Part shown: piece after piece, positions 3,322-55,787 of the stretch
Layout of the letters: every line of letters starts with the position of its first letter
Numbering within the stretch: the first letter of the stretch is position 1
Source: an uncultured bacterium
Lineage (GTDB): Bacteria; Patescibacteriota; Microgenomatia; Levybacterales; UBA12049
Length of the DNA: 64,000 nucleotides
Reading direction: 5' to 3'
Assembly: GCA_963826535.1 (NCBI GenBank)
Contig: CAWGXL010000011.1
Span: forward strand, 809-64,808
The notes under the pieces: model-generated
Database searches by the model: none
What the model saw: only the letters and a program-made list of their open reading frames with translations
What the model was told of the DNA's origin: nothing
Translations under genes and position numbers: made by a program

Positions 3322-4927
<1,606 letters not shown>

Positions 4928-6280: not shown

Positions 6281-7633
6281 TCATTTTTTTGATGATTCTG
6301 TCCATTCATTAAGTTCACGCTTTGACTTCTCTAAATAATAATTCGCTTCATCTTTTTTTCCATTACGTAACAACCAATGACCAAATGCATTTTCTAATAT
6401 AAAATTTTCCTCAACTTTCAAATCATGCGTATAAAGCGTATATGTATCTTTCCAGTCAGGTACTCTGGCCCTTGTCCTTAATGATAAAGGGATAACAATC
6501 ACTAACCATAATATAAATATAAATACTAAATATCTTTTTTTCGATATATTTAACAATGCAAAGGTAACTCCTATCAGGCCAAGCAGTCCAACAAAAGGGA
6601 AATAAAACCACCTATCAGCAACAATCTGATCCAAGCTTAAAAATATATTCAAATGGAATAACATACCACTAACTAACCAGATTGTAAAAAATATGAAAGG
6701 CACGAAAAGGCTTCTTTTTTTCCAACATGCGAATCCTAAAAACAATATAGCGGCTGTGACTAAAAGATCAACAATTAAAGGGATATAAAAGTTGCTAAAA
6801 GTAATATCATTGATAATCCATAAATGTGAAAATGATAAATCTTTGGGATAGAATAAGGTTTTAATATAGAAAAAAATGATCGATGGTAATGTGTTTAGAA
6901 TTTGACCTGCATTCGAAATCGCATGAATATTAAAATGAGTATTTGAAGTCAACGGAAAAATCATCCTAAGCGCGACGTATGTAACTATAATTGCAGTAAC
7001 TGAGATCGAAAATCGTATAAATTGAGATCCCCTATTTTTTTGTGGCTTGAATAATATGATTAAAAAAATAGGTACAAAAAAAAGGAATCCTGTTTCTTTT
7101 GAAAGTATTGATAGGAATAAAAGAACAGAGGAAAGTATAGTACCGGTTTTGTTATTTTTATAAATAGTAATGAATAGTGCCAACATGCCAAAAAAGAAAA
7201 ATAGCACTTCTTGTATATCCGCTATGGGTACTGCGATTTCTGCATTAATCGGATGGACAAGAAAGAGAACGGCCAGAAGCAATGCTAATAAATTATTAAA
7301 GAATATTCGCAACAGCAGGTAAACCAAATAGGCATTTATAAAATAAAATGTCAGATGAAATAGGTGCAGGAAAAAAGCCTTTAAACCGAAAGTTGAGATA
7401 ATAATTGTGTAAACAGTGAGCAAGATCGGTCTATAATATTGTCCTTCTAATTCGCGTGTTGAAGTATTGTAAAAAGAGCTACCTTGGAAAAAGAGGGGAA
7501 TGTTGGTTATCGAATGAACCAGGGGATTTTTTTCAATTATGTATTCATCGTCACCTGCAAATCCGTTAAAAACAACATTGAAGTAAATTATAATTCCCAG
7601 GGTAGCAATGATGATAAATGCGACTGTTTTCAA
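6281..7633 (-). CDS. GT-C superfamily membrane glycosyltransferase (PMT/ArnT-like) with a short C-terminal soluble tail.
   Basis: Polytopic membrane protein. GFAGDDEYII motif in the first loop. Confidence 0.5.
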   Translation of the reverse strand: MKTVAFIIIATLGIIIYFNVVFNGFAGDDEYIIEKNPLVHSITNIPLFFQGSSFYNTSTRELEGQYYRPILLTVYTIIISTFGLKAFFLHLFHLTFYFINAYLVYLLLRIFFNNLLALLLAVLFLVHPINAEIAVPIADIQEVLFFFFGMLALFITIYKNNKTGTILSSVLLFLSILSKETGFLFFVPIFLIILFKPQKNRGSQFIRFSISVTAIIVTYVALRMIFPLTSNTHFNIHAISNAGQILNTLPSIIFFYIKTLFYPKDLSFSHLWIINDITFSNFYIPLIVDLLVTAAILFLGFACWKKRSLFVPFIFFTIWLVSGMLFHLNIFLSLDQIVADRWFYFPFVGLLGLIGVTFALLNISKKRYLVFIFILWLVIVIPLSLRTRARVPDWKDTYTLYTHDLKVEENFILENAFGHWLLRNGKKDEANYYLEKSKRELNEWTESSKK

Positions 7634-7770
7634 CTTAAAAGAATTATACCAAAAAGAATTAGAATTATATTTGCATACAATATAGTCAATGCAAGTAGTT
7701 AGTGCTAAACAGTGTCAAATAATATGTAATTCCGGGTGATATAAGAAGCTGAAGATTGTATAATAGATAA

Positions 7771-33283: not shown

Positions 33284-34567
33284 TTATAGCATATTTTCTC
33301 TTGTTTGAGTATTTAGAAGTTCTAGCCATTGCAAATCAGATGCTAGATTTTGTAAGTTTGCCTGACCTAGCCAACTCTTCTGGAGATCTTGGTATATTAA
33401 CACTTGAGTTCTTAATTCAAATGCACTTCCCACAATAAGTGCTGCACGGACAAAATCGTATGTTTTTTGAGCAACTCCAAAAGGATTTATTTTAGTGAGG
33501 GTTTGTAGGTATTCCCGGCGAAATGCGCTCGGATTATGATGCATCCTTTGCGGGTCCTTCAAAGAGACTTGTCTTCCAACTAATGCACTAACATCAGTAA
33601 GTAAGGCCAATGTACGATTATTCGTTATACCGCCAAACTCTTGATCGATATATACTACAGGGTCCTCCGCTCCTGCAAAGATAATTTGTGTTGTCTTTGT
33701 TTGTGCCTCTTTCTGTTCAATATCTGCCATAACCATTCTATCGAAGAAGTAATTATCTTGCCGCATGTCGTCCATACAATATGTTGGATGACCTTCACCA
33801 TCAGCAAATAATGGCTCCAGAAGTCGTCCTGCTTCAATAAATCGTTCTCCTAACCATTCCAGAGCATTTTGTTTTTTTGTATATCGATTAATAGTTTCAC
33901 TGTGAGGTCCTAAACAGTCAGTGATTTCTCCAGCAAAAACCTTGAAAAATTCTTCAGCAGAACGGGAACATGGTTCAGCTTGTGGAAGGTGAGAAGTATC
34001 AGTATTAGCATCTATTCCATGCCAAACTTTAGGAATATGACTTGCAGCGATAAATCTGGCATATTTTGGATCAATAGCCGCGACTGCTTCTTGTGTATAA
34101 GGAAAGTGTATAAAAGATTCATCTGGTAAGAATGCATACTCTACCACCAATCTGCCTTCTGCCGTTGGTTGTAATGGAGTAATAATGCTAGGTGTGCGAA
34201 AACCTAATGGATTTGCTATTGTATTAGTATATTCTCTTATTAATTGGGCTTTTGCATGTTCACTCCCCGCAATTTTCCCAAGGCCTTCTCTTATGCCTCT
34301 ATTTGATTTGAAAATAAGAAATTTACGAGGATAATAAATTAGGGAAGGATTTTCTTTTTGTAATTCAAAAGAAAGTGACCTCACTTGAGGGTCAGGTGAT
34401 AAAGCAGGAGTTATATCTTCAGTAATTCGACCAAACGCTTCATATATTCGTTCTTTTGTAATTTGTTCAGATGAAGCTTCAGTAAGAAAAAGTGCCTTTC
34501 TTACATGTGGACTCATCGCCTGTAAAGGAATTTCGCTTATTGTGAAAGGGATATGTACTGGTGTCAT
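33284..34567 (-). CDS. Hypothetical protein (427 aa) immediately upstream of rpsL, the position usually occupied by rpoC.
   Basis: Long ORF with no recognisable motif. Confidence 0.35.
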
Positions 34568-34624: not shown

Positions 34625-35182
34625 CTAATTATCATCAGGAACGAACTTCAAAGCTATCGAATTCATGCAGTAACGCTTACCCGTAGGCGGCGGGCCATCA
34701 TCAAAAACATGACCGAGATGCCCTCCGCATGTATCAAGTACTTCAATCCGATTATCTCCAAGAGTGCTTTCTTTGCGCAGAACTAGCGCGTCTTCTGTAA
34801 TGGGCTCCCAGAAACTTGGCCAACCGGTTCCTGAATCATATTTTTGTTCTGATCTAAAGAGAGGCTTATCGCAACCGACACTATAGTATGTTCCTTTCCG
34901 TTTCTCGTGATTTAATGCACCGGTAAATGGAATCTCAGTCCCCGCTTCACGCAAAATATGATATTGTTCAGGATTTAGAATTTTTCTCCACTGGTCATCT
35001 GTTTTGAAACTACTTTTGTTAAATTTCCCGGAGATAATCTGACCACTTGACTCGGTTGGTGTGGTGGTTTGTATTGCTTGAGGTTTTTGCGTTTGATAGA
35101 AAACTATTGCAATCAGTACGATTACTCCTACGAGAATTGTTAGGGTTAACTTATTGGATTTATTGGGGCGGTTTTTTATCAT
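34625..35182 (-). CDS. msrB: Peptide-methionine (R)-S-oxide reductase MsrB, membrane-anchored.
   Basis: GTGWPSF...CGGHLGHVFDDGP...RYCMNS SelR motifs. N-terminal TM. Confidence 0.85.
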   Translation of the reverse strand: MIKNRPNKSNKLTLTILVGVIVLIAIVFYQTQKPQAIQTTTPTESSGQIISGKFNKSSFKTDDQWRKILNPEQYHILREAGTEIPFTGALNHEKRKGTYYSVGCDKPLFRSEQKYDSGTGWPSFWEPITEDALVLRKESTLGDNRIEVLDTCGGHLGHVFDDGPPPTGKRYCMNSIALKFVPDDN

Positions 35183-35194
35183 AAAATTTTTTAA

Positions 35195-36943
35195 TTATCC
35201 AAAAGTAAAAGCAAATACTTGGACGTTTTCATCAACAAACTCTAAACGCAATATATGGCGCCCCGGAGTTGGGAGATTGATCAGCTTATAAAGCCTGTCT
35301 TTATTTACAGTTACTATTCCATTTTTATTGTCTTCTCCGAAATCTTGAAGTTTGTCATCAAGGTAGACCTTTACTTTTGCCCCGATTGAATCGGGGTTTG
35401 CCGGGTTTCCGTTTGTACGCATAACAAGAAATACTTCTTTGGATTCGAAATTGAGAAGCAGTTTTGCGCCTTTTTGCGGATTGGCATATTCATGCATAAC
35501 ATTCCATTTGCCCACAAACGCTACCTGATTATTCCCTAACTTGCTTTGTGCTGTATACATTGAAGCTTTGTCATAGGCTATTTTTTCGGGGGATGCAAGA
35601 TTTTCTATTCGTCCCCAACCCAAATATATTTCAGGAGTTTGGGAGTTGATTTGGTATGTAGGATTATTGACATTAGCAGGCAAATTTTTTGCACCGGATT
35701 CTTTCAATAACTCTTGAATGACGCGTTCGGTTTCATCATAGGCTCCTTCGCCAAAGTGTGTGTAGCGAATATAACCTTCTTTATCTATAAGATACTTAGC
35801 CGGCCAAAAACGGTTGTTGTAAGCTCTCCAGGTAGCAAAATCATTGTCTTGAACTACGGGGTACTTTAGTTTAAAGTCGGCTATAGCCTCTGCAACATTT
35901 TTCTCACTCTTTTCAAATTCAAACTCCGGCGAATGTACACCGATAATTACTAAACCTTTATCATTATATTTTTCATGCCAGGACCTTAAATACGGCATTG
36001 TTCTCTGACAGTTAATGCAAGAGTAAGTCCAGAAATCAACAAGCACCACTTTGCCTTTCAATTGTTCAAGTGTTAAAGGGTTCGTGTTTAACCAAACGCC
36101 TCCAGGAATTATTTCGGGAGCTTTTGGGCCTTTTGGAGCTGACACATCAAACATCGGCTTTCCCATACCTTCTTCTTTCACTTCGTTCCCCATTTTCTTA
36201 TCAAGCGCATTTCTTACAGCATCATTATCTTCAAATTTTATGAGTCCTGAACCGTATTGGGGAAATTTATCAAGAATAAAAGTTTGAAATTTTCTGTCAA
36301 CGTTAAAAAATATTCCGATGGCGGTGAGAATCATTAACACTCCGAATAGTTTTTGGATGTTATTCAGATTTGCAAGTAACCATGGGACTCGGCGGAGTGC
36401 GTTTTGCCCGCCAAGCATTATAAGAAACATCGGAATTGCAGTACCAAGAGAATATGCTAGTGTTATAAGAAATGCGTCAAAGGTGACAGTACCGGTGATG
36501 GCCAAGGATATGACGGACGCGAGAATTGGACCAACGCATGGGGTCCAGAGAAGGCCCACGGAAAACCCTATTAATAGTCCACCGCCAAAACCTGTTTTAT
36601 TTTGACTGCTTGGCATGAACCCAGCTAGTTTTGAAAATAACCTCTCAACGAGTAATTGAAACTGTGGAATAAGCAGTGACGCGCCAAAACCGGCTATGAC
36701 CAATACTGAGACAAGCCTGAGAGTATCTGCTGAAATCCCGCTCAGTCGGACAATAGTCGAAAGAAAAAGTGTAAAGAAAGTAAAACTTAAAACAAATCCA
36801 ATAACAACGCCCATTGGACGAGATTTTCCAGTATTTTTACCCCCGATACTTGAGGATAAAATAATTGGCAATATAGGTAATATACAGGGTGAGAGTACGG
36901 TTATAACTCCGGCTAAAAACGCGAATGCGATAAGTAGAATCAT
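35195..36943 (-). CDS. CcdA/DsbD-type thiol:disulfide transporter fused to a periplasmic thioredoxin (TlpA-like) domain and a C-terminal domain.
   Basis: N-terminal SPCILPILP CcdA motif with multiple TM segments. Thioredoxin VVLVDFWTYSCINCQRT. 582 aa. Confidence 0.8.
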   Translation of the reverse strand: MILLIAFAFLAGVITVLSPCILPILPIILSSSIGGKNTGKSRPMGVVIGFVLSFTFFTLFLSTIVRLSGISADTLRLVSVLVIAGFGASLLIPQFQLLVERLFSKLAGFMPSSQNKTGFGGGLLIGFSVGLLWTPCVGPILASVISLAITGTVTFDAFLITLAYSLGTAIPMFLIMLGGQNALRRVPWLLANLNNIQKLFGVLMILTAIGIFFNVDRKFQTFILDKFPQYGSGLIKFEDNDAVRNALDKKMGNEVKEEGMGKPMFDVSAPKGPKAPEIIPGGVWLNTNPLTLEQLKGKVVLVDFWTYSCINCQRTMPYLRSWHEKYNDKGLVIIGVHSPEFEFEKSEKNVAEAIADFKLKYPVVQDNDFATWRAYNNRFWPAKYLIDKEGYIRYTHFGEGAYDETERVIQELLKESGAKNLPANVNNPTYQINSQTPEIYLGWGRIENLASPEKIAYDKASMYTAQSKLGNNQVAFVGKWNVMHEYANPQKGAKLLLNFESKEVFLVMRTNGNPANPDSIGAKVKVYLDDKLQDFGEDNKNGIVTVNKDRLYKLINLPTPGRHILRLEFVDENVQVFAFTFG

Positions 36944-37003
36944 ATATATTACTAATTAGTTTTTGATACTGGTTCCTGTAAAAACAAAAGCCGGCACTAC
37001 AAA

Positions 37004-37633
37004 CTACTTAATGTTAACAAGTAGCTCATTAGTTTGTCCACCGTTCCACTTGGTAACTTCTTTACCTTGTGAATCAATTTGGACAAATGTGTGTTGATAT
37101 GTAATGCCGTACTTTTTGGCGAGATCTTTTTCTTCCTGATCGGTATTTGGATCGTTGTAATTGGTCCTTATCACAACTACGTCCTCGGGTATTTTACCGG
37201 GATTTTTTGTAAAATCTTCATTGGCGACTTTACATGTCGGACACCAGGTTGCGTAAAAATAGAGTACCCTGCGCTTGTCCGAAGACTCATCAAGAGCAGC
37301 TTTTGAGTACTCAACATAACGGGGTGAGTTTGACTTTATCGCTTTGTTCCCTTCATTTGCCAACAACGCCTCGCCTTCTTTTTTCTCAATCGCTTTTTGT
37401 TCTGGGGTTTCAGCTCCTTCACCTTCTTCACTTTCTTCTTTTTCCTTAGCTACAGGCTCTTTTTGCATCAAGGCGCCATACTCTTGTGGTGCTTTTGCAA
37501 GGTCAGTTTGTTTTGAGTTTTGATTTGCAACAAATAAGCCACCTGCAACAAGGACTAAAACGACAATGACGGTAATTATTAATTTATTATTCATTTTCTC
37601 GCCTCCCCTCTTTTTAATGCTTGATATGACCAT
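37004..37633 (-). CDS. Membrane-anchored thioredoxin.
   Basis: N-terminal TM. Acidic linker. YFYATWCPTCKV (WCPTC active site). Confidence 0.75.
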   Translation of the reverse strand: MVISSIKKRGGEKMNNKLIITVIVVLVLVAGGLFVANQNSKQTDLAKAPQEYGALMQKEPVAKEKEESEEGEGAETPEQKAIEKKEGEALLANEGNKAIKSNSPRYVEYSKAALDESSDKRRVLYFYATWCPTCKVANEDFTKNPGKIPEDVVVIRTNYNDPNTDQEEKDLAKKYGITYQHTFVQIDSQGKEVTKWNGGQTNELLVNIK

Positions 37634-38027
37634 AGATTAGTCCGAATATTTTGGCAAGTAATGCGATACATACAGCAACAATAAGCCAGGGGTCTATCTT
37701 GTCTGTAAAATATTGCACAATGACACCAATAATAAGCGTCGTGATGACTGCAAAATAAGCAAAGCGTGAGGCAATAAATTTGTGAAGCTGCTCCCGTTCA
37801 TCCCCTGGTTTTTCTTTCCATAGAAAACCGGAAAATACTATAAAAAGTATTCCTAGAAGCGGGACCATCATCGGGTGCAAAATGGCGGGAATAAGCGGTT
37901 CTATTGGTTTTATGAAGCAAATCAGGAGCCAGATTAATAATATAGAAAGTACGATTTCGCCAATAAAGTTATTTTTCATATTTGTATGTAAATACTTCCT
38001 CAACAGGTTTTTTGAAAAACCTGGCAA
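37614..38027 (-). CDS. Small integral membrane protein cotranscribed with an XRE regulator.
   Basis: 137 aa with four hydrophobic segments. Overlaps the upstream HTH gene. Confidence 0.35.
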   Translation of the reverse strand: MPGFSKNLLRKYLHTNMKNNFIGEIVLSILLIWLLICFIKPIEPLIPAILHPMMVPLLGILFIVFSGFLWKEKPGDEREQLHKFIASRFAYFAVITTLIIGVIVQYFTDKIDPWLIVAVCIALLAKIFGLIYGHIKH

Positions 38028-38178
38028 TTTTTAGTCCAAGTAATAACGAAGGTATATAATTTCCCTTTTCGATCGCAATTATGGTTTGGCGTGATACCTT
38101 AACTGCTTTTGCGAGATCTTCTTGGGTTACATTCATTTCTTTACGCAATTCAAAAACTCTGTTAGTTATATGATCCAT
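37969..38178 (-). CDS. XRE-family helix-turn-helix transcriptional regulator.
   Basis: VTQEDLAKAVKVSRQTIIAIEKG is a classic Cro/C1-type HTH. 69 aa. Confidence 0.7.
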   Translation of the reverse strand: MDHITNRVFELRKEMNVTQEDLAKAVKVSRQTIIAIEKGNYIPSLLLGLKIARFFKKPVEEVFTYKYEK

Positions 38179-38234
38179 GATAATTTTTTAAATGTCAAGT
38201 GGATTTGACATTAGTTTAAGAGTTTTGAGGGGGT

Positions 38235-38952
38235 TTGTCAAGTAGGTTTTACATTTGTGCTATACTTATTTTTATGAAGAAATATGTAATGTTTGGAATT
38301 GCATGCCTACTCGTTCTCGGGGTTGTATATACATTTACGCGGGAGCATATACAAAAATTTAACAGCGGGTCTGTAAAAAAAATTACAGAGGACAAAAACT
38401 CGAGGAGGATTATATAGAACTGCATTATTTGCCGGAGGTTGTTTTTGGAGTCTTGAGTCCTATTTCGAAAAAATTCCTGATGGTATTGTTGATGTCGTAT
38501 CCGGCTATTCGGGTGGTACGAGCGAGAACCCAACATATGAAAACTATACAGAGGGGAATCATAGAGAAGTTGTCCAAGTGACTTATGATCCAGCGAAGAT
38601 CTCGTACGGAGCACTCACGGAATATTTCATTCGCCATATAGATCCAACAGATGCAGGCGGCTCTTTCTACGATCGTGGAATGAATTACACATCTGCTATA
38701 TATTATGAAAATCAGGAGGAAAAAAAAGCAGCAGAGGATGTTATTGCAACAATTGATGGGGCAAAAATATTTGAAAAACCTATTGTGACAGATGTTTTGC
38801 CCAAATTAAACTTCTGGCCAGCCGAGGGGTATCACCAGAACTATGCAAAGAACAATTCATTGAGATATGCGGCGTATCGCGTTGGCTCAGGGCGCGACGG
38901 GTTTCTAAAAAAGTTCTGGGAAGGAAAAGAAAGTATTCTTTATAAGGAATAA
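38235..38952 (+). CDS. msrA: Peptide-methionine (S)-S-oxide reductase MsrA with an N-terminal membrane anchor. The reading frame is broken by a +1 shift at an A8 homopolymer (38375-38382).
   Basis: Frame 0 encodes MKKYVMFGIACLLVLGVVYTF...SVKK. Frame +1 encodes LQRTKTRGGLYRTALFAGGCFWSLESYF...GYHQNYAKNN (MsrA GCFW active site) with no in-frame start. Removing one A fuses the two in frame. Confidence 0.7.
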
Positions 38953-38991: not shown

Positions 38992-39516
38992 ATGTCTAGC
39001 GATTTGATTGAACAATCAAAATTATCAGGGTATCACAAAAATCTGAGCCAATTAGTTGGAGAGTGGGAAGGTGCGACGAAAGTGTGGTTTGACGAAGGGA
39101 GCCAGGCACAAGAATCGCCTATCATGGGAACCATGCGGCTTATACTAGATGGTCGTTTTATTTTGCATGAATATCAAGGCAGCTTTGACGGCAAACCGCT
39201 ACAAGGCGCAGCCATCTATGGTTACAGTAGCGGGAAAAAACAATTCGAGTGCGCCTGGGTAGACAGTTTTCATAATGGGGATAGCATAATGTTTTCAGTT
39301 GGAAAAGATACAGGTAAAGTTTTTTCTGTACTTGGTAACTATTTAACCGATTGCGGAGATGGCCGTGGTGAAGAGCGATGGGGTTGGCAGACAGAGATTA
39401 GGATTATCAACAAATTCAAAATCGTGATCCGGATGGATAACATTTCTCCTGATGGGAAAAAAGAGGGAGGAGTTGAGACAATCTATCATCGTAAAAAAAT
39501 TTTAAGTAGACCGTAG
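38992..39516 (+). CDS. DUF1579-like hypothetical protein.
   Basis: 174 aa. LVGEWEGATKVWFDEG...GKPLQGAAIYGY resembles the DUF1579 family. Assignment tentative. Confidence 0.35.
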   Translation: MSSDLIEQSKLSGYHKNLSQLVGEWEGATKVWFDEGSQAQESPIMGTMRLILDGRFILHEYQGSFDGKPLQGAAIYGYSSGKKQFECAWVDSFHNGDSIMFSVGKDTGKVFSVLGNYLTDCGDGRGEERWGWQTEIRIINKFKIVIRMDNISPDGKKEGGVETIYHRKKILSRP

Positions 39517-54417: not shown

Positions 54418-55758
54418 ATGCTTGATTCATTTGTTAACCATTCCGATATCATAGCCGCAAACCGACTGGATGCGGAGTATTTCCAACCAAAGTTTCTAGA
54501 TTTACGGGAAAAATTAAAGAGCGGGAAGTATAGAAAACTGCACGAGTTATGCGAATTTATCCGGACAGGACCTGCGGGCTCAGTTCTGCCAGCGTCTAAA
54601 TATACATCATCCGGTATAAAAGTTTATAGACCGTCAAATTTAAACGGCTGGACTTGCGATAACTCTAATATTGTTTATGTATCTGAAGAGTATTGTAGTA
54701 AACAAAATTTAAAACTGTATAGCAACGGTGATATTTTAGTGACAAGAATTGGAGATATAAAATTTGCAATTATTCAGGAAACTAAACTCTTTGCAATTAG
54801 CCCAAATTTATTTGTAATTAGAACAAAGAAAGATTTACTTGATCCGTATTTTCTATTAGTATTTCTCAATACATGGTTTGGAGCTGATCAAATTCTACGC
54901 GGACAAAAAATTGTTTCTTTAGCGTCTGTGGATATTGGACAGGTTGCTAATATGCTAGTGCCGTTAATACCTGTTGATGCGCAAATAAAAATAGGCAAAT
55001 TAGTAAAAAATGGGTTAAAAAAATTGCGGCAAGCAAAGGAGATACATTCTCAAACAGAAAGTGCTCTTGTGCAAATTATTGGTCACCAAAAAAGTAGCAA
55101 GGATCAATCGTCAAACATAATAAACTTTTCCGAATTACTAAAAGTACGCCGGGCAGATGCTGAATATTTCTTGGCGCAAAAATTCATAGGTCAAGAGTCA
55201 ATAAAATGGATGCAAATTGGTGAAATTTCACGTGTTATGCGTGGAATTGAGCCCGGAAGAAAAGCTTACCAAAAAAACGGAAAATTATTTATGAGGGTCA
55301 GCAATATAGATAAATACGGATTATTGGAAAAAAGCCAAAAATATATTAGTGAAGTTTTATATAAAAAACTTTACAAAAAATATCAACCACAAATTAGTGA
55401 GATACTGCTCGTAAAAGATGGAAAACCTGGTGTTGCTTTTGTTGTTAAAAAATCTATAAAGGGAATAATCTCAGATGGAATTGTGCGGCTACAGCTTAAT
55501 ACTCTATTTGCCCCAGAATATGTGAGTCTTTGTATAAATTCTCCTATTTGTCAGCAACAGATCCTAGCTGATATAGATGGATCACTTGTGCCGCATTGGA
55601 AGGTTGAGCAAATAAAGAATTTAAAAATTCCAATTGTTTCTGCAAATATCCAAGCAGGGCTTGTTAGAGTCATGAAAAAATCCGGTATACTTTTTCAAAA
55701 AGCGGAGGAAAATTTATTACTTGCAAAATACCAAATAATTCTCTTTATGCCAAAATAA
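54418..55758 (+). CDS. hsdS: Type I restriction-modification specificity subunit HsdS with two target-recognition domains.
   Basis: Duplicated NRLDAEYF / RRADAEYF N-terminal-of-TRD motifs. Conserved PLIPVDAQIKIGKLV and IPIVSANIQAGLV spacer regions. Confidence 0.8.
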   Translation: MLDSFVNHSDIIAANRLDAEYFQPKFLDLREKLKSGKYRKLHELCEFIRTGPAGSVLPASKYTSSGIKVYRPSNLNGWTCDNSNIVYVSEEYCSKQNLKLYSNGDILVTRIGDIKFAIIQETKLFAISPNLFVIRTKKDLLDPYFLLVFLNTWFGADQILRGQKIVSLASVDIGQVANMLVPLIPVDAQIKIGKLVKNGLKKLRQAKEIHSQTESALVQIIGHQKSSKDQSSNIINFSELLKVRRADAEYFLAQKFIGQESIKWMQIGEISRVMRGIEPGRKAYQKNGKLFMRVSNIDKYGLLEKSQKYISEVLYKKLYKKYQPQISEILLVKDGKPGVAFVVKKSIKGIISDGIVRLQLNTLFAPEYVSLCINSPICQQQILADIDGSLVPHWKVEQIKNLKIPIVSANIQAGLVRVMKKSGILFQKAEENLLLAKYQIILFMPK

Positions 55759-55761
55759 TTT

Positions 55762-55787
55762 GTCATTCCCCTGGACAGGGGGAATCC
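55762..55787. repeat. Variant REP-like hairpin (GTCATTCCCCTGGACAGGGGGAATCC).
   Basis: Same GTCATTCCC/GGGAATCC arms with a different loop. Lies 45 nt upstream of copy 4. Confidence 0.6.

Follow-up and report, generated by a model that had tools for sequence, protein, structure and literature searches.

A predicted extracytoplasmic thiol-reducing locus with linked methionine sulfoxide reductases in a Patescibacteria genome

Does the gene cluster at positions 34625 to 38952 of a 64-kb stretch of DNA from an uncultured Patescibacteria bacterium (the 64,000 nucleotides analysed, hereafter the window) encode a complete system for the repair of oxidised methionines outside the cytoplasm? The locus shows a tight five-gene row on the minus strand (34625-38178), containing the genes for an XRE-family protein, a 4-TM protein, an anchored WCPTC thioredoxin, DipZ and an anchored MsrB, in this order, and a divergent msrA on the plus strand. 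It is probable, at roughly three chances in four, that the row is an XRE-headed operon under a repressor and that, together with msrA, it provides a thiol-reducing pathway outside the cytoplasm, with the Msr enzymes as its linked clients here. The kind of cluster is ordinary and well known, transferring reductant across the membrane for the repair of oxidised methionines in surface proteins, and the locus corresponds, in Patescibacteria, to the CcdA-Etrx-MsrAB2 and PilB/DsbD pathways. Its most novel component is an unstudied XRE/DUF2178-like regulator pair with a conserved operator.

Gene organisation of the locus

All the genes of the original prediction were located: MsrB, a CcdA-redoxin fusion, the WCPTC thioredoxin, the 4-TM protein, XRE and a msrA-homologous region. 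The genes of the five-gene row are intact and show intergenic spacings of -11, 19, 60 and 12 nt, all on one strand, and no terminator-like site was found in the gaps between them. The XRE gene and its membrane partner are adjacent to the divergent msrA, as proposed, but they are the operon head and not a separate unit or an appendage of msrA. The functional reading, with a CcdA/DsbD-type transmembrane conduit for reductant, thioredoxin folds outside the cytoplasm and exported Msr enzymes, is supported by family membership, catalytic motifs, hydropathy, the positive-inside rule, operon structure, synteny and characterised analogues, but the intactness of msrA, the completeness of the path and the placing of the XRE pair had to be corrected. 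MsrB, MsrA and the DipZ domains all score over the curated cutoffs of their families.

The msrB gene (34625..35182, minus strand) encodes a 185-aa methionine-R-sulfoxide reductase (Pfam SelR, 8.7e-45; TIGR00357, 165.6 bits with a cutoff of 113) with an N-terminal signal-anchor, which by hydropathy has a TM at about residues 12-30 preceded by four K/R; the anchor is kept in 19 of the 21 DipZ-linked MsrB of relatives. The catalytic residue is Cys172, in RYCMNS. Alignment with PDB structures shows no Zn site, with S-V-G-C and D-T-C replacing both CxxC motifs, and no resolving Cys, with Thr at that site.

Upstream, dipZ (35195..36943, minus strand) encodes a 582-aa three-domain fusion (Pfam DsbD_TM, Redoxin/AhpC-TSA and Thioredoxin_10): a CcdA/DsbD-type domain of 6 TM with Cys20 (SPCILP) and Cys136 (TPCVGP), a TlpA/ResA-like redoxin domain with C309-I-N-C312, and a C-terminal Thioredoxin_10 domain. 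This gene had been described as a CcdA-TlpA fusion; the CcdA and redoxin domains are present, but the third domain was missed, and its presence identifies the fusion as DipZ. Its PDB matches are M. tuberculosis DipZ (2hyx/5cyy, 4e-57 across residues 275-512) and CcdA (5vkv, 5e-13), and its homologues carry the NCBI name DipZ ('cytochrome c biogenesis protein DipZ').

The membrane-anchored thioredoxin gene (37004..37594, minus strand; Pfam Thioredoxin, 1.7e-08) was listed as an ORF at 37004-37633. The upstream ATG at 37633 is a less likely start than the ATG at 37594, which has a Shine-Dalgarno sequence, GGGGAGG, 7 nt on its 5' side and gives 196 aa; the relatives have 170-189 aa. The protein shows one N-terminal TM, an acidic linker and a W-C118-P-T-C121 active site. 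The anchor is kept in 38/39 relatives and the gene is upstream of DipZ in 39/50 loci. All redox cysteines are present.

The interrupted msrA gene

The translations of msrA (38274..38952, plus strand; Pfam PMSR, 3.9e-52) show that it is interrupted. The single membrane-anchored MsrA that had been predicted is not one ORF: the anchor and the PMSR domain are in different frames, a frameshift previously overlooked. The frame-1 ORF extends from ATG 38274 to a TAG at 38415-38417 and encodes an anchor peptide of 47 aa. The +1 frame, which ends at TAA 38952, carries the PMSR domain with the catalytic Cys56 codon at 38440-38442 (GCFWS) and shows no start codon before GTG 38578, itself 3' of the catalytic Cys. 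The frameshift site (38394..38398, plus strand) has an A5 run, compared to A4 in intact relatives (GAC AAA ACT CGA); it is the single gap column when the DNA of the window is aligned with that of L068 and L026, and in the protein alignment with P0121 the frame switches exactly after ...ITEDK. P0121, of locus L068, is the closest intact homologue (87% amino acid identity); intact homologues have 225 aa. In silico deletion of one A gives a 225-aa anchored single-Cys MsrA which scores 146.3 against TIGR00401 (cutoff 108), has Ala199 at the position of the PilB resolving Cys and finds its best solved-structure match in the PilB MsrA domain (3bqe/3bqg, 4e-33).

As sequenced, either the R-specific arm (MsrB) alone is functional or the extra base is an assembly error. 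There is somewhat less than an even chance that msrA is a genuine pseudogene, in a lineage that is losing part of the system and in which the MsrB (R-sulfoxide) arm alone still works. The deposited assembly contains the frameshift and calls as a gene only a 124-aa C-terminal piece without the catalytic Cys (P0147), and the insertion is in a short A4 run, not in a long error-prone homopolymer. Moreover, in the closest species-level relative (L057) DipZ is cut to the CcdA domain and MsrB is absent, which shows that the system decays in the clade. However, apart from one base, the gene retains the 87% protein identity to its intact homologue and shows no more stops or indels, the promoter, the operators and the five other genes are intact, and no assembly error is commoner than a single-base indel in a homopolymer.

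Conservation of the locus in relatives

The synteny survey included 63 species-representative loci, and counts are given per 50 loci. Trx-DipZ is the conserved core (39/50), and XRE plus the membrane protein is found in 24/50; DipZ has Msr genes beside it in 19/50 and MsrB directly downstream in 18/50. The exact divergent msrA layout of the window is also found in L026 and L068, and four look-ups from the 4-TM protein all gave XRE-Memb-Trx/Redoxin-DipZ. Since the clustering recurs in dozens of species-representative genomes, it is not due to chance; nor is it notable for a minimal genome, as had been suggested, the cluster being common in Microgenomates-type Patescibacteria.

Since Msr genes are beside DipZ in only 19/50 loci, the core pathway is not Msr-specific. 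It is possible, if on balance doubtful, that Trx-DipZ is a general envelope disulfide-reducing or thiol-protecting system (isomerisation, sulfenic-acid rescue, peroxiredoxin-like clients), that Msr is one optional client set, and that 'methionine-repair cluster' mislabels the main role. This would agree with the 39/50 relatives with Trx-DipZ, with the operons of other relatives that hold extra Redoxin/AhpC-TSA proteins instead of Msr, and with L057, the closest GTDB relative, which keeps XRE-Memb-Trx-CcdA without Msr. However, MsrB and MsrA are the sole recognisable linked, and apparently co-regulated, clients in the window, and both are, from their aligned residues, single-cysteine types, which would need an external thiol reductant. 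A general role is also compatible with Msr enzymes as clients and does not exclude it.

Predicted topology of the exported proteins

N-terminal anchors had been claimed for all catalytic proteins. Hydrophobic segments are present in MsrB, the thioredoxin and the 5' ORF of msrA, and DipZ has 6 TM, but a single anchored-MsrA ORF does not exist. By hydropathy, MsrB and the thioredoxin show single N-terminal anchors with positive N-flanks, and loops 1-2, 3-4 and 5-6 of DipZ are K/R-rich, which would give an N-out/C-out protein with the redoxin domains outside. The predicted outward topology of MsrB, thioredoxin and DipZ is well supported; the outward orientation of MsrA, judged by flank charges, is ambiguous, N-in/C-out not being clearly favoured. 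The MsrA anchor of the window's subgroup has +2 on the N side (2 K/R) versus 4 K/R against 1 D/E in the next 15 residues, and among 99 anchored homologues the N flank is more positive in 53, the C flank in 18, and 28 are tied. The window's own charges and the C-positive and tied homologues would fit Msr domains, at least that of MsrA, which face the cytoplasm, tethered to the membrane and fed by cytoplasmic thioredoxin independently of DipZ. This arrangement is improbable, given the N-positive majority of homologues, the clear 4 K/R N-flank of MsrB, the linkage of the genes, by shared operator too, to a reductant-export system, and the exported PilB as source of the best structural relative of MsrA. 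Furthermore, many Patescibacterial homologues are anchor-MsrA-MsrB fusions, which places both domains in one compartment.

The putative regulatory pair and its operators

The first operon gene (37969..38178, minus strand) encodes a 69-aa XRE-family HTH protein (Pfam HTH_3, 5.2e-14), presumed to be the autorepressor of the operon. Its stop is overlapped by 11 nt by the start of the gene for the uncharacterised, DUF2178-like 4-TM protein (37614..37979, minus strand; 121 aa, TM from hydropathy). This protein shows a conserved cytoplasmic loop, W-K-E-x-P-G-D-E-R-E-Q-L-H-K-F-I-A-S-R, and its AF2 model has four helices (pLDDT 84.8). The window's copy has no match in Pfam or NCBIfam, and its homologues show weak PF09946 matches; in related loci it is always beside XRE and upstream of Trx/DipZ.

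Two copies of a putative operator, with consensus TGTCAA-N6-TTGACA, overlap both divergent promoters and are kept in relatives. The proximal operator O1 (38191..38212), detected by repeat search, is a perfect palindrome, AATGTCAA-N6-TTGACATT, and a zero-mismatch pattern match (chance expectation 0.54 per window at <=2 mismatches). The distal operator O2 (38236..38258; TGTCAAGTAGGTTTTACATTTGT), 43 bp from O1 and 83% identical to it, matches with 2 mismatches. The predicted sigma-70-type promoter of the operon, XRE to msrB (38213..38241, minus strand; 10/12 in the promoter scan), shows TTGACA at 38241-38236, 17 nt and TAAACT at 38218-38213; sequences of seven relatives, read directly, keep the layout TTGACA/TTGATA, 17-18 nt, TAnAnT. 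O1 is directly 3' of the operon -10 and so would cover the predicted transcription start, and O2 overlaps the operon -35, just upstream of the msrA -10. For msrA, a predicted extended -10 (TGcTATACT, 38258..38266, plus strand), read directly from the sequence, is identical in L068 and is TGtTATACT in L026. A canonical -35 is absent, because TTGTCA is 20 nt away, and the ATG is 8 nt after the -10, which would leave the mRNA with little or no leader. In L001, L057, L041, L026, L018 and L015 the O1 site occupies -29 to -32 relative to the XRE ATG; L047, L054, L016 and L049 have variants of it, and a second site is at about -75 in L001, L057, L026 and L015. At least 10 loci thus have the palindrome at a constant spacing from the XRE start, with the promoter hexamers kept.

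It is very improbable that an unrelated mobile or toxin-antitoxin-like pair, formed by XRE and the small membrane protein, came to lie by chance between msrA and the redox genes. XRE has sub-threshold matches to models of antitoxins and phage repressors (Y4mF/HipB-type, 6.7e-09; RstR, 7.5e-08). However, the two overlapping genes stand at the same place, ahead of Trx-DipZ, in 24/50 species, and each of the four independent look-ups gave this arrangement; the operator also overlaps the promoter of the operon, and integrase or phage genes are absent alongside the pair.

Proposed electron path

The cluster had been considered a complete electron path. TrxA/TrxB homologues were found neither in the cluster nor elsewhere in the 64-kb window, which leaves the path incomplete here; in L069, TrxB and TrxA follow in the same operon and supply the cytoplasmic end there. 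The cytoplasmic donors, thioredoxin and its reductase, would be encoded elsewhere in the genome. Electrons would pass from NADPH-thioredoxin reductase to cytoplasmic thioredoxin, to the Cys20/Cys136 pair in the CcdA-type domain of DipZ, and from this membrane domain to its own external CINC redoxin domain and/or the anchored WCPTC thioredoxin, which would reduce the sulfenic acid on MsrB Cys172 and MsrA Cys56 at each turnover on envelope Met-SO. XRE would bind both palindromic operators, repressing the operon and msrA, and the co-translated 4-TM partner would probably modulate XRE from the membrane. The domain identities, catalytic residues, order of the genes, hydropathy and conservation of operators and promoter are observed, and the direction in which electrons flow, the outward topology, the repression, its signal and the part played by the 4-TM protein are inferred. 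Host-derived oxidative stress at the cell surface, also proposed, is pure speculation. A role of DipZ and the thioredoxin in cytochrome c maturation, with Msr genes as accidental neighbours, is scarcely credible: CcdA and ResA/TlpA-type proteins have this role in Bacillus and other bacteria, the NCBI name of the homologues suggests it and the redoxin domain matches ResA at 7e-21, below that model's cutoff, but haem-handling and apocytochrome genes are absent from the locus and every related locus examined, Patescibacteria reportedly (by the title of one study) lacked electron transport chains ancestrally, and MsrB directly after DipZ in 18/50 species is not accidental.

Comparison with characterised systems

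The predicted likeness to streptococcal and Neisseria PilB systems proved a precise analogy to characterised systems (PMC3914529, PMC9239216) which share the same logic (also PMC7034828). In S. pneumoniae CcdA1-Etrx1-MsrAB2/CcdA2-Etrx2 (PMC3914529; S. gordonii equivalent, PMC7034828), a CcdA-type protein moves electrons of cytoplasmic thioredoxin to a surface thioredoxin-fold protein and on to a surface-anchored Msr; operon clustering and the monoderm-type envelope are also alike, and the window redoxin domain matches the Etrx structures 2yp6, 4hqz, 4hqs and 4evm. In contrast, the window's CcdA is fused to its own redoxin and Thioredoxin_10 domains, and its extra thioredoxin has a TM anchor instead of being a lipoprotein. 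In place of an MsrAB fusion that has resolving cysteines, the window has MsrA and MsrB as separate enzymes, each with its own anchor and of predicted single-Cys type; its regulator is the XRE/4-TM pair, and msrA is frameshifted. Neisseria PilB, a Trx-MsrA-MsrB fusion fed by DsbD, likewise has exported MsrA and MsrB; a dedicated thioredoxin fold reduces them and is itself recharged via a DsbD/CcdA-family membrane protein. However, PilB is one polypeptide of a diderm periplasm or outer membrane and the window has four separate genes, the MsrA resolving Cys of PilB is Ala199 in the window, and DsbD has alpha and gamma domains where DipZ has redoxin and Thioredoxin_10.

The Fusobacterium nucleatum trx-ccdA-msrAB-modRS locus, which is oxidant-induced (PMC9239216), also groups a dedicated regulator with its Msr, Trx-like and CcdA-like genes. 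There the regulator is the ModRS two-component activator, whereas the window has a small XRE repressor-like protein and a 4-TM protein with palindromic operators. M. tuberculosis DipZ (Rv2874; C-terminal domain 2hyx, 5cyy) shares the three-domain architecture and an identical W-x-Y-S-C-I-N-C-Q. The window's DipZ differs in that its operon also encodes MsrB and an anchored thioredoxin. To our knowledge, the physiological clients of the mycobacterial protein are not established and it has no Msr gene linkage. E. coli MsrPQ performs the same task, Met-SO repair in envelope proteins, but its chemistry and parts differ altogether: it has a molybdoenzyme and a haem b membrane protein that takes electrons from quinols, and the window contains none of these. 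BcrR-type regulators (PMC10269533) are XRE HTH domains fused to four TM helices, and share with the window both elements and envelope-stress operon control. BcrR is an activator sensing bacitracin and the window pair is two polypeptides, the likeness being an analogy of architecture alone and not membership; with their genes overlapping by 11 nt, the XRE and 4-TM proteins resemble a split version of BcrR.

Organization of the locus

The genes of the repair system are arranged as a minus-strand operon, in the order XRE regulator, four-transmembrane (4-TM) protein, anchored thioredoxin, DipZ and anchored MsrB, with msrA divergent on the plus strand (38274-38952). The XRE gene (38178-37969) encodes an HTH_3 protein (Pfam PF01381, 5.2e-14), and the start of the gene encoding the 121-aa 4-TM membrane protein (37979-37614) overlaps its stop by 11 nt. 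They are followed by the thioredoxin gene (37594-37004, or 37633-37004 from an upstream ATG; Pfam Thioredoxin, 1.7e-08), a gene encoding a 582-aa DipZ fusion (36943-35195; DsbD_TM, Redoxin/AhpC-TSA and Thioredoxin_10) and msrB (35182-34625; SelR/MsrB). The gaps beyond the XRE/4-TM overlap are 19, 60 and 12 nt, and no terminator-like site was found inside any operon gap. The most likely thioredoxin start is ATG 37594, since it is preceded by GGGGAGG and gives a predicted length near that of its relatives (170-189 aa). The XRE and 4-TM genes, which the original prediction described as neighbours of msrA, head the operon behind a conserved operator.

Two flanking genes were considered as parts of the system and rejected, because neither is found near DipZ in the 64 related loci. 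One is a 427-aa ORF (33284-34567, minus strand), located 57 nt downstream of msrB, with no TM segment and no Pfam or NCBIfam match; it lies 10 nt upstream of rpsL (S12, 33273-32842), so it is possibly co-transcribed with rpsL-rpsG. The other encodes a DUF1579 protein (38992-39516, plus strand; 6.7e-29) and starts 39 nt past the msrA stop; it was not found near msrA in the related loci examined.

The source genome belongs to the Patescibacteria (CPR), Microgenomates type. The GC content of the window is about 38%, and DipZ shares 75-82% identity with proteins named from Levy-, Gottesman-, Woese-, Davies-, Shapiro- and Curtissbacteria. At 3322-4927 the window contains a full-length bacterial 16S rRNA gene (1606 nt versus a 1533-position model, hence about 70 nt longer). 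Neither a 23S nor a 5S rRNA gene adjoins it and no tRNA genes were found across the 64 kb; it looks like an unlinked rRNA gene.

Frameshift in msrA

The membrane-anchored MsrA of the original prediction is not encoded by a single ORF. The ORF containing the anchor runs from ATG 38274 to TAG 38415-38417 and encodes 47 aa. The PMSR domain and its GGCFWS motif are in the +1 frame, where the first start codon, GTG 38578, is beyond the catalytic cysteine, and no intact msrA ORF containing this cysteine is present in the window. The closest intact homologue, P0121 (225 aa, 87% identity), encoded in the related locus L068, reads ...KKITEDK-TRGGLYKTALFAGGCFW, and the window gene follows it in frame 1 up to ITEDK and in frame 2 from TRGGLY. 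DNA alignment of the window with L068 and L026 shows one extra A in the run at 38394-38398 (A5 versus A4), and the in silico removal of one A restores a 225-aa MsrA. The deposited genome annotates just a 124-aa C-terminal piece (P0147).

The extra A is either an assembly error or the mark of a real pseudogene. Decay of the system within the clade is real, because in L057, the closest species-level relative, the DipZ gene (7001-7765) encodes the CcdA membrane domain alone (254 aa, 89% identical) and the redoxin domain, Thioredoxin_10 and MsrB are absent; this locus keeps XRE, the 4-TM protein, the anchored thioredoxin and both operators. Programmed +1 frameshifting or phase variation is unlikely: the A4-to-A5 run is short, there is no prfB-like slippery/stop context, the frame-0 stop AUA-UAG allows no tRNA re-pairing, and the intact relatives have one A fewer. 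Two other shift sites were ruled out: an A8 run (38376-38383), which the intact L068 gene has unchanged, and TATATAG near 38411, by the P0121 alignment. The A8 homopolymer, in the linker part of msrA and 11 nt before the lesion, is a further slippage-prone tract.

Redox enzymes and active-site cysteines

MsrB scores 165.6 bits with TIGR00357 (cutoff 113.05) and 151.9 with PF01641 (cutoff 24.9), and its Cys172, in GKRYCMNSI, aligns to the catalytic cysteine of 2k8d, 6q9v and 6sym. It keeps one cysteine in each Zn-binding CxxC (S-V-G-C and D-T-C), and the resolving position (DSG-C-GWPSF) is occupied by Thr, as in 2k8d and MsrB3. MsrB is therefore of the Zn-less, 1-Cys subtype; the Zn site and the resolving cysteine are features of subtype, and membership of the MsrB family does not need them. 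MsrA matches PF01625 (3.9e-52, +1-frame translation) and, as the reconstruction, TIGR00401 (146.3 versus a cutoff of 108.1). Its GGCFWS motif holds Cys56, the sole cysteine of the domain, and Ala199 aligns to the resolving cysteine of the Neisseria PilB MsrA domain. By these alignments MsrA and MsrB are both single-cysteine enzymes. In single-cysteine Msr proteins the sulfenic acid intermediate is reduced directly by an external thiol partner, a chemistry consistent with a dedicated thioredoxin-fold donor encoded by a neighbouring gene.

The conduit, earlier described as a CcdA-TlpA fusion, is indeed fused, and because it shows three domains, including Thioredoxin_10, it is a DipZ: PF02683 (49.4, cutoff 27.1), PF08534 (55.1, cutoff 26.6) and PF17991 (107.3, cutoff 27.1). 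Its PDB matches are the C-terminal structures of M. tuberculosis DipZ, 2hyx and 5cyy (4e-57), and the NMR structure of CcdA, 5vkv (5e-13). Every expected redox cysteine was found in DipZ, thioredoxin and MsrB: the DipZ membrane cysteines of the P-C-x-x-P motifs in TM1 and TM4 are Cys20 in SPCILP and Cys136 in TPCVGP, its redoxin-domain CxxC is C309-I-N-C312, and the thioredoxin active site is W-C118-P-T-C121.

Membrane topology

Topology was assigned by Kyte-Doolittle hydropathy and K/R counting. DipZ shows six TM segments; loops 1-2, 3-4 and 5-6 carry three K/R apiece and no charged residues precede TM1, a pattern that predicts an N-out/C-out protein with the redoxin and Thioredoxin_10 domains outside. 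N-out/C-out is the accepted topology of CcdA/DsbD-beta. MsrB has four K/R within the 11 residues preceding its single TM segment (predicted N-in/C-out), and the thioredoxin has one N-terminal TM segment followed by an acidic linker. The N-terminal anchors are conserved in 19/21 MsrB and 38/39 thioredoxin relatives. Taken together, the hydropathy and charge patterns support a location outside the membrane for MsrB, the thioredoxin and the DipZ redoxin domains.

Of the predicted orientations, the outward one of MsrA is the least secure. An N-terminal hydrophobic segment is present in 99 of the 120 best MsrA homologues; in the subgroup of the window MsrA the flank on the C side is at least as positive as that on the N side (MKK versus TREHIQKFNSGSVKK). 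With flank charges this ambiguous, MsrA might instead face the cytoplasm, though this is unlikely. The 4-TM protein is predicted to be N-in/C-in, because of its K/R-rich central loop WKEKPGDEREQLHKFIASR, with external loops of just 6-7 residues.

Conservation in related genomes

For each GTDB species one genome was scanned, which gave 64 DipZ loci, in which the window proteins were mapped by phmmer; the counts refer to the 50 loci with enough flank. The anchored thioredoxin is directly upstream of DipZ in 39/50, XRE and the 4-TM protein are upstream of the thioredoxin in 24, MsrB is directly downstream of DipZ in 18, and any Msr gene is nearby in 19. L026 and L068 show the exact layout of the window, including an intact divergent msrA. 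Four look-ups starting from 4-TM homologues all gave XRE, 4-TM protein, Trx/Redoxin and DipZ. Trx-DipZ forms the conserved core, to which the Msr genes and the XRE pair are often but optionally added. The cluster, which had been regarded as notable in a minimal genome, is common in the clade and not exceptional.

Locus L069 (4822-11802) has two DipZ paralogues and an operon with the order XRE, 4-TM, Redoxin, Trx, DipZ, TrxB, TrxA and DUF3179. The two genes past DipZ encode a thioredoxin reductase (Pyr_redox_2) and a cytoplasmic thioredoxin, so the whole path from NADPH to the surface lies in one transcription unit. In L001 a gene encoding a cytoplasmic-type thioredoxin is between DipZ and MsrB. 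Near the loci in L068 and L070 there are again genes encoding DUF3179, MarR, a fasciclin-domain protein and a short-chain dehydrogenase.

In L005, L028 and L043 the region downstream of DipZ contains three stop-free segments that overlap in different frames and match MsrB (weak), MsrA and MsrB, and many database Msr homologues are 380-390-aa anchor-MsrA-MsrB fusions. The Msr part is therefore architecturally variable, being found both separate and fused. Near-identical DipZ operons of the Microgenomates type were also found in many MAGs titled 'uncultured Gammaproteobacteria', 'Pseudomonadales' and 'Methanosarcinales' (L004, L006, L008, L015, L020, L057 and others), taxon titles that look unreliable.

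Predicted operators and promoters

The 95-bp divergent intergenic region (38179-38273) contains two 23-nt direct copies of a putative operator, 43 bp apart. The proximal copy, TGTCAAGTGGATTTGACATTAGT (38193-38215), contains the perfect palindrome AATGTCAA-N6-TTGACATT, and the distal copy is TGTCAAGTAGGTTTTACATTTGT (38236-38258). In the whole window the operator pattern is found at these two sites and at one weak site, with a chance expectation of 0.54; the weak match, ATGCCAAAATAATTTGTCAT (55747-55766, two mismatches), overlaps the 3' end of an ORF (54418-55758) and is probably due to chance.

The predicted operon promoter is sigma-70-like, TTGACA-17-TAAACT (38241-38213, minus strand; 10/12 matches). 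Its -35 is inside the distal operator copy and the proximal palindrome starts directly past the -10, so that it would cover the likely transcription start. The same palindrome is 29-32 nt before the XRE ATG in L001, L057, L041, L026, L018 and L015, and variants are found in L047 (Saccharimonadales), L054, L016 and L049 (an Acidiferrales MAG). At least 10 loci retain the operator. The hexamers TTGACA-17/18-TAnAnT are kept too, and a second site is found at about -75 in most. A second XRE subgroup (L010, L045, L020, L024, L013, L021 and L004), about 50% identical to the window XRE, does not show TGTCAA-N6-TTGACA; some 20 nt before the XRE start it has a different conserved motif, AAATCATGTAAAATAC, which suggests a diverged operator or promoter.

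On the msrA side, a putative extended -10, TGcTATACT (38258-38266, plus strand), has the distal operator just upstream. The ATG is 8 nt past this -10, from which a leaderless msrA mRNA is predicted. No canonical -35 was found for msrA, the distance between TTGTCA and TATACT being 20 nt. From this arrangement we infer autorepression of the operon by XRE, and probably repression of msrA too.

The XRE and 4-TM pair

The 4-TM family has about 183 detectable homologues, nearly all of 121 aa and from Patescibacteria. The window protein shows no Pfam or NCBIfam family match, and none to PF09946 (DUF2178) at E<=1; PF09946 is precomputed in about 17 of 120 close homologues, and is weak where graded. 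The literature search on DUF2178 found nothing relevant. The AlphaFold (AF2) model (pLDDT 84.8) shows four long helices, and its Foldseek comparison with the PDB gave generic four-helix bundles alone, none at E<=0.001. In ten diverse copies from the related loci the invariant residues (E56, D60, E61, R62, H66 and R72) cluster in the predicted cytoplasmic loop, and no invariant cysteine is present in either alignment. A DsbB/VKOR-like thiol oxidoreductase was rejected on account of this lack of invariant cysteines and the tiny external loops.

Tentatively, XRE and the translationally coupled 4-TM protein could form a split, membrane-tethered sensor-regulator of envelope oxidative or thiol stress that derepresses the reductant-export operon. 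By architecture, and by analogy alone, the pair would be a two-protein analogue of the one-component regulator BcrR; BcrR-type transmembrane regulators appear in PMC10269533. Both the fixed position of the pair and the overlap of operator and promoter contradict the alternative of an unrelated toxin-antitoxin or phage module. If the sensor-regulator reading is true, it provides a first function for this membrane-protein family and defines a conserved regulon with the operator TGTCAA-N6-TTGACA across Microgenomates, with variants in one locus labelled Saccharimonadales and one labelled Acidiferrales. The real potential for novelty is confined to this DUF2178-like regulatory pair, for which the locus offers a testable regulatory hypothesis.

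Functional interpretation and comparison with known systems

A membrane conduit, an external thioredoxin fold and Msr are genetically linked in the window, and the association recurs in relatives. Domain identities, redox cysteines and synteny bear out a real cluster and support its functional reading, the repair of methionine sulfoxide outside the membrane, as probably right in essence. The claim of a complete electron path holds for the clade, as in L069, and goes beyond what the window itself shows, where no TrxA or TrxB homologue was found within the 64 kb. It is partly true that Trx-DipZ is a general supply of envelope reductant with the Msr proteins as optional clients, as the presence of Msr genes near just 19/50 loci suggests, and this is compatible with surface methionine repair as the main explanation. 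A role of DipZ in cytochrome c maturation, as its automatic name implies, is very unlikely, since no haem or cytochrome genes are beside any locus and Patescibacteria reportedly lack respiratory chains (title of PMC7507113).

If the repair reading holds, many ultra-small Patescibacteria devote scarce genome space to surface reducing power and methionine repair, as would suit a way of life that relies on exposed surface proteins. DipZ would also gain concrete, genetically linked clients, the anchored thioredoxin and the single-cysteine MsrA and MsrB; we know of no established clients of mycobacterial DipZ. The annotation gains the msrA frameshift and a revised thioredoxin start, and the predicted operator and promoter could be put to use in the few genetically tractable Patescibacteria. 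The literature search found no description of Msr, DipZ or such a cluster in Patescibacteria.

The locus does not overturn current understanding, and its logic is that of several known systems. In the pneumococcal CcdA1-Etrx1-MsrAB2 and CcdA2-Etrx2 systems, electrons from cytoplasmic TrxB/TrxA pass through CcdA to thioredoxin lipoproteins on the surface and then to surface MsrAB2, and the transfer from Etrx1/2 to MsrAB2 was shown biochemically (PMC3914529); the window locus would follow the same logic, here read from sequence. Similar arrangements are the S. gordonii pathway (PMC7034828), the trx-ccdA-msrAB-modRS locus of F. nucleatum (PMC9239216) and the Neisseria PilB fed by DsbD. Compared with these systems, the window locus shows a DipZ-type three-domain conduit, a thioredoxin that is TM-anchored and not a lipoprotein, separate, individually anchored, single-cysteine MsrA and MsrB, and an XRE/4-TM regulator.
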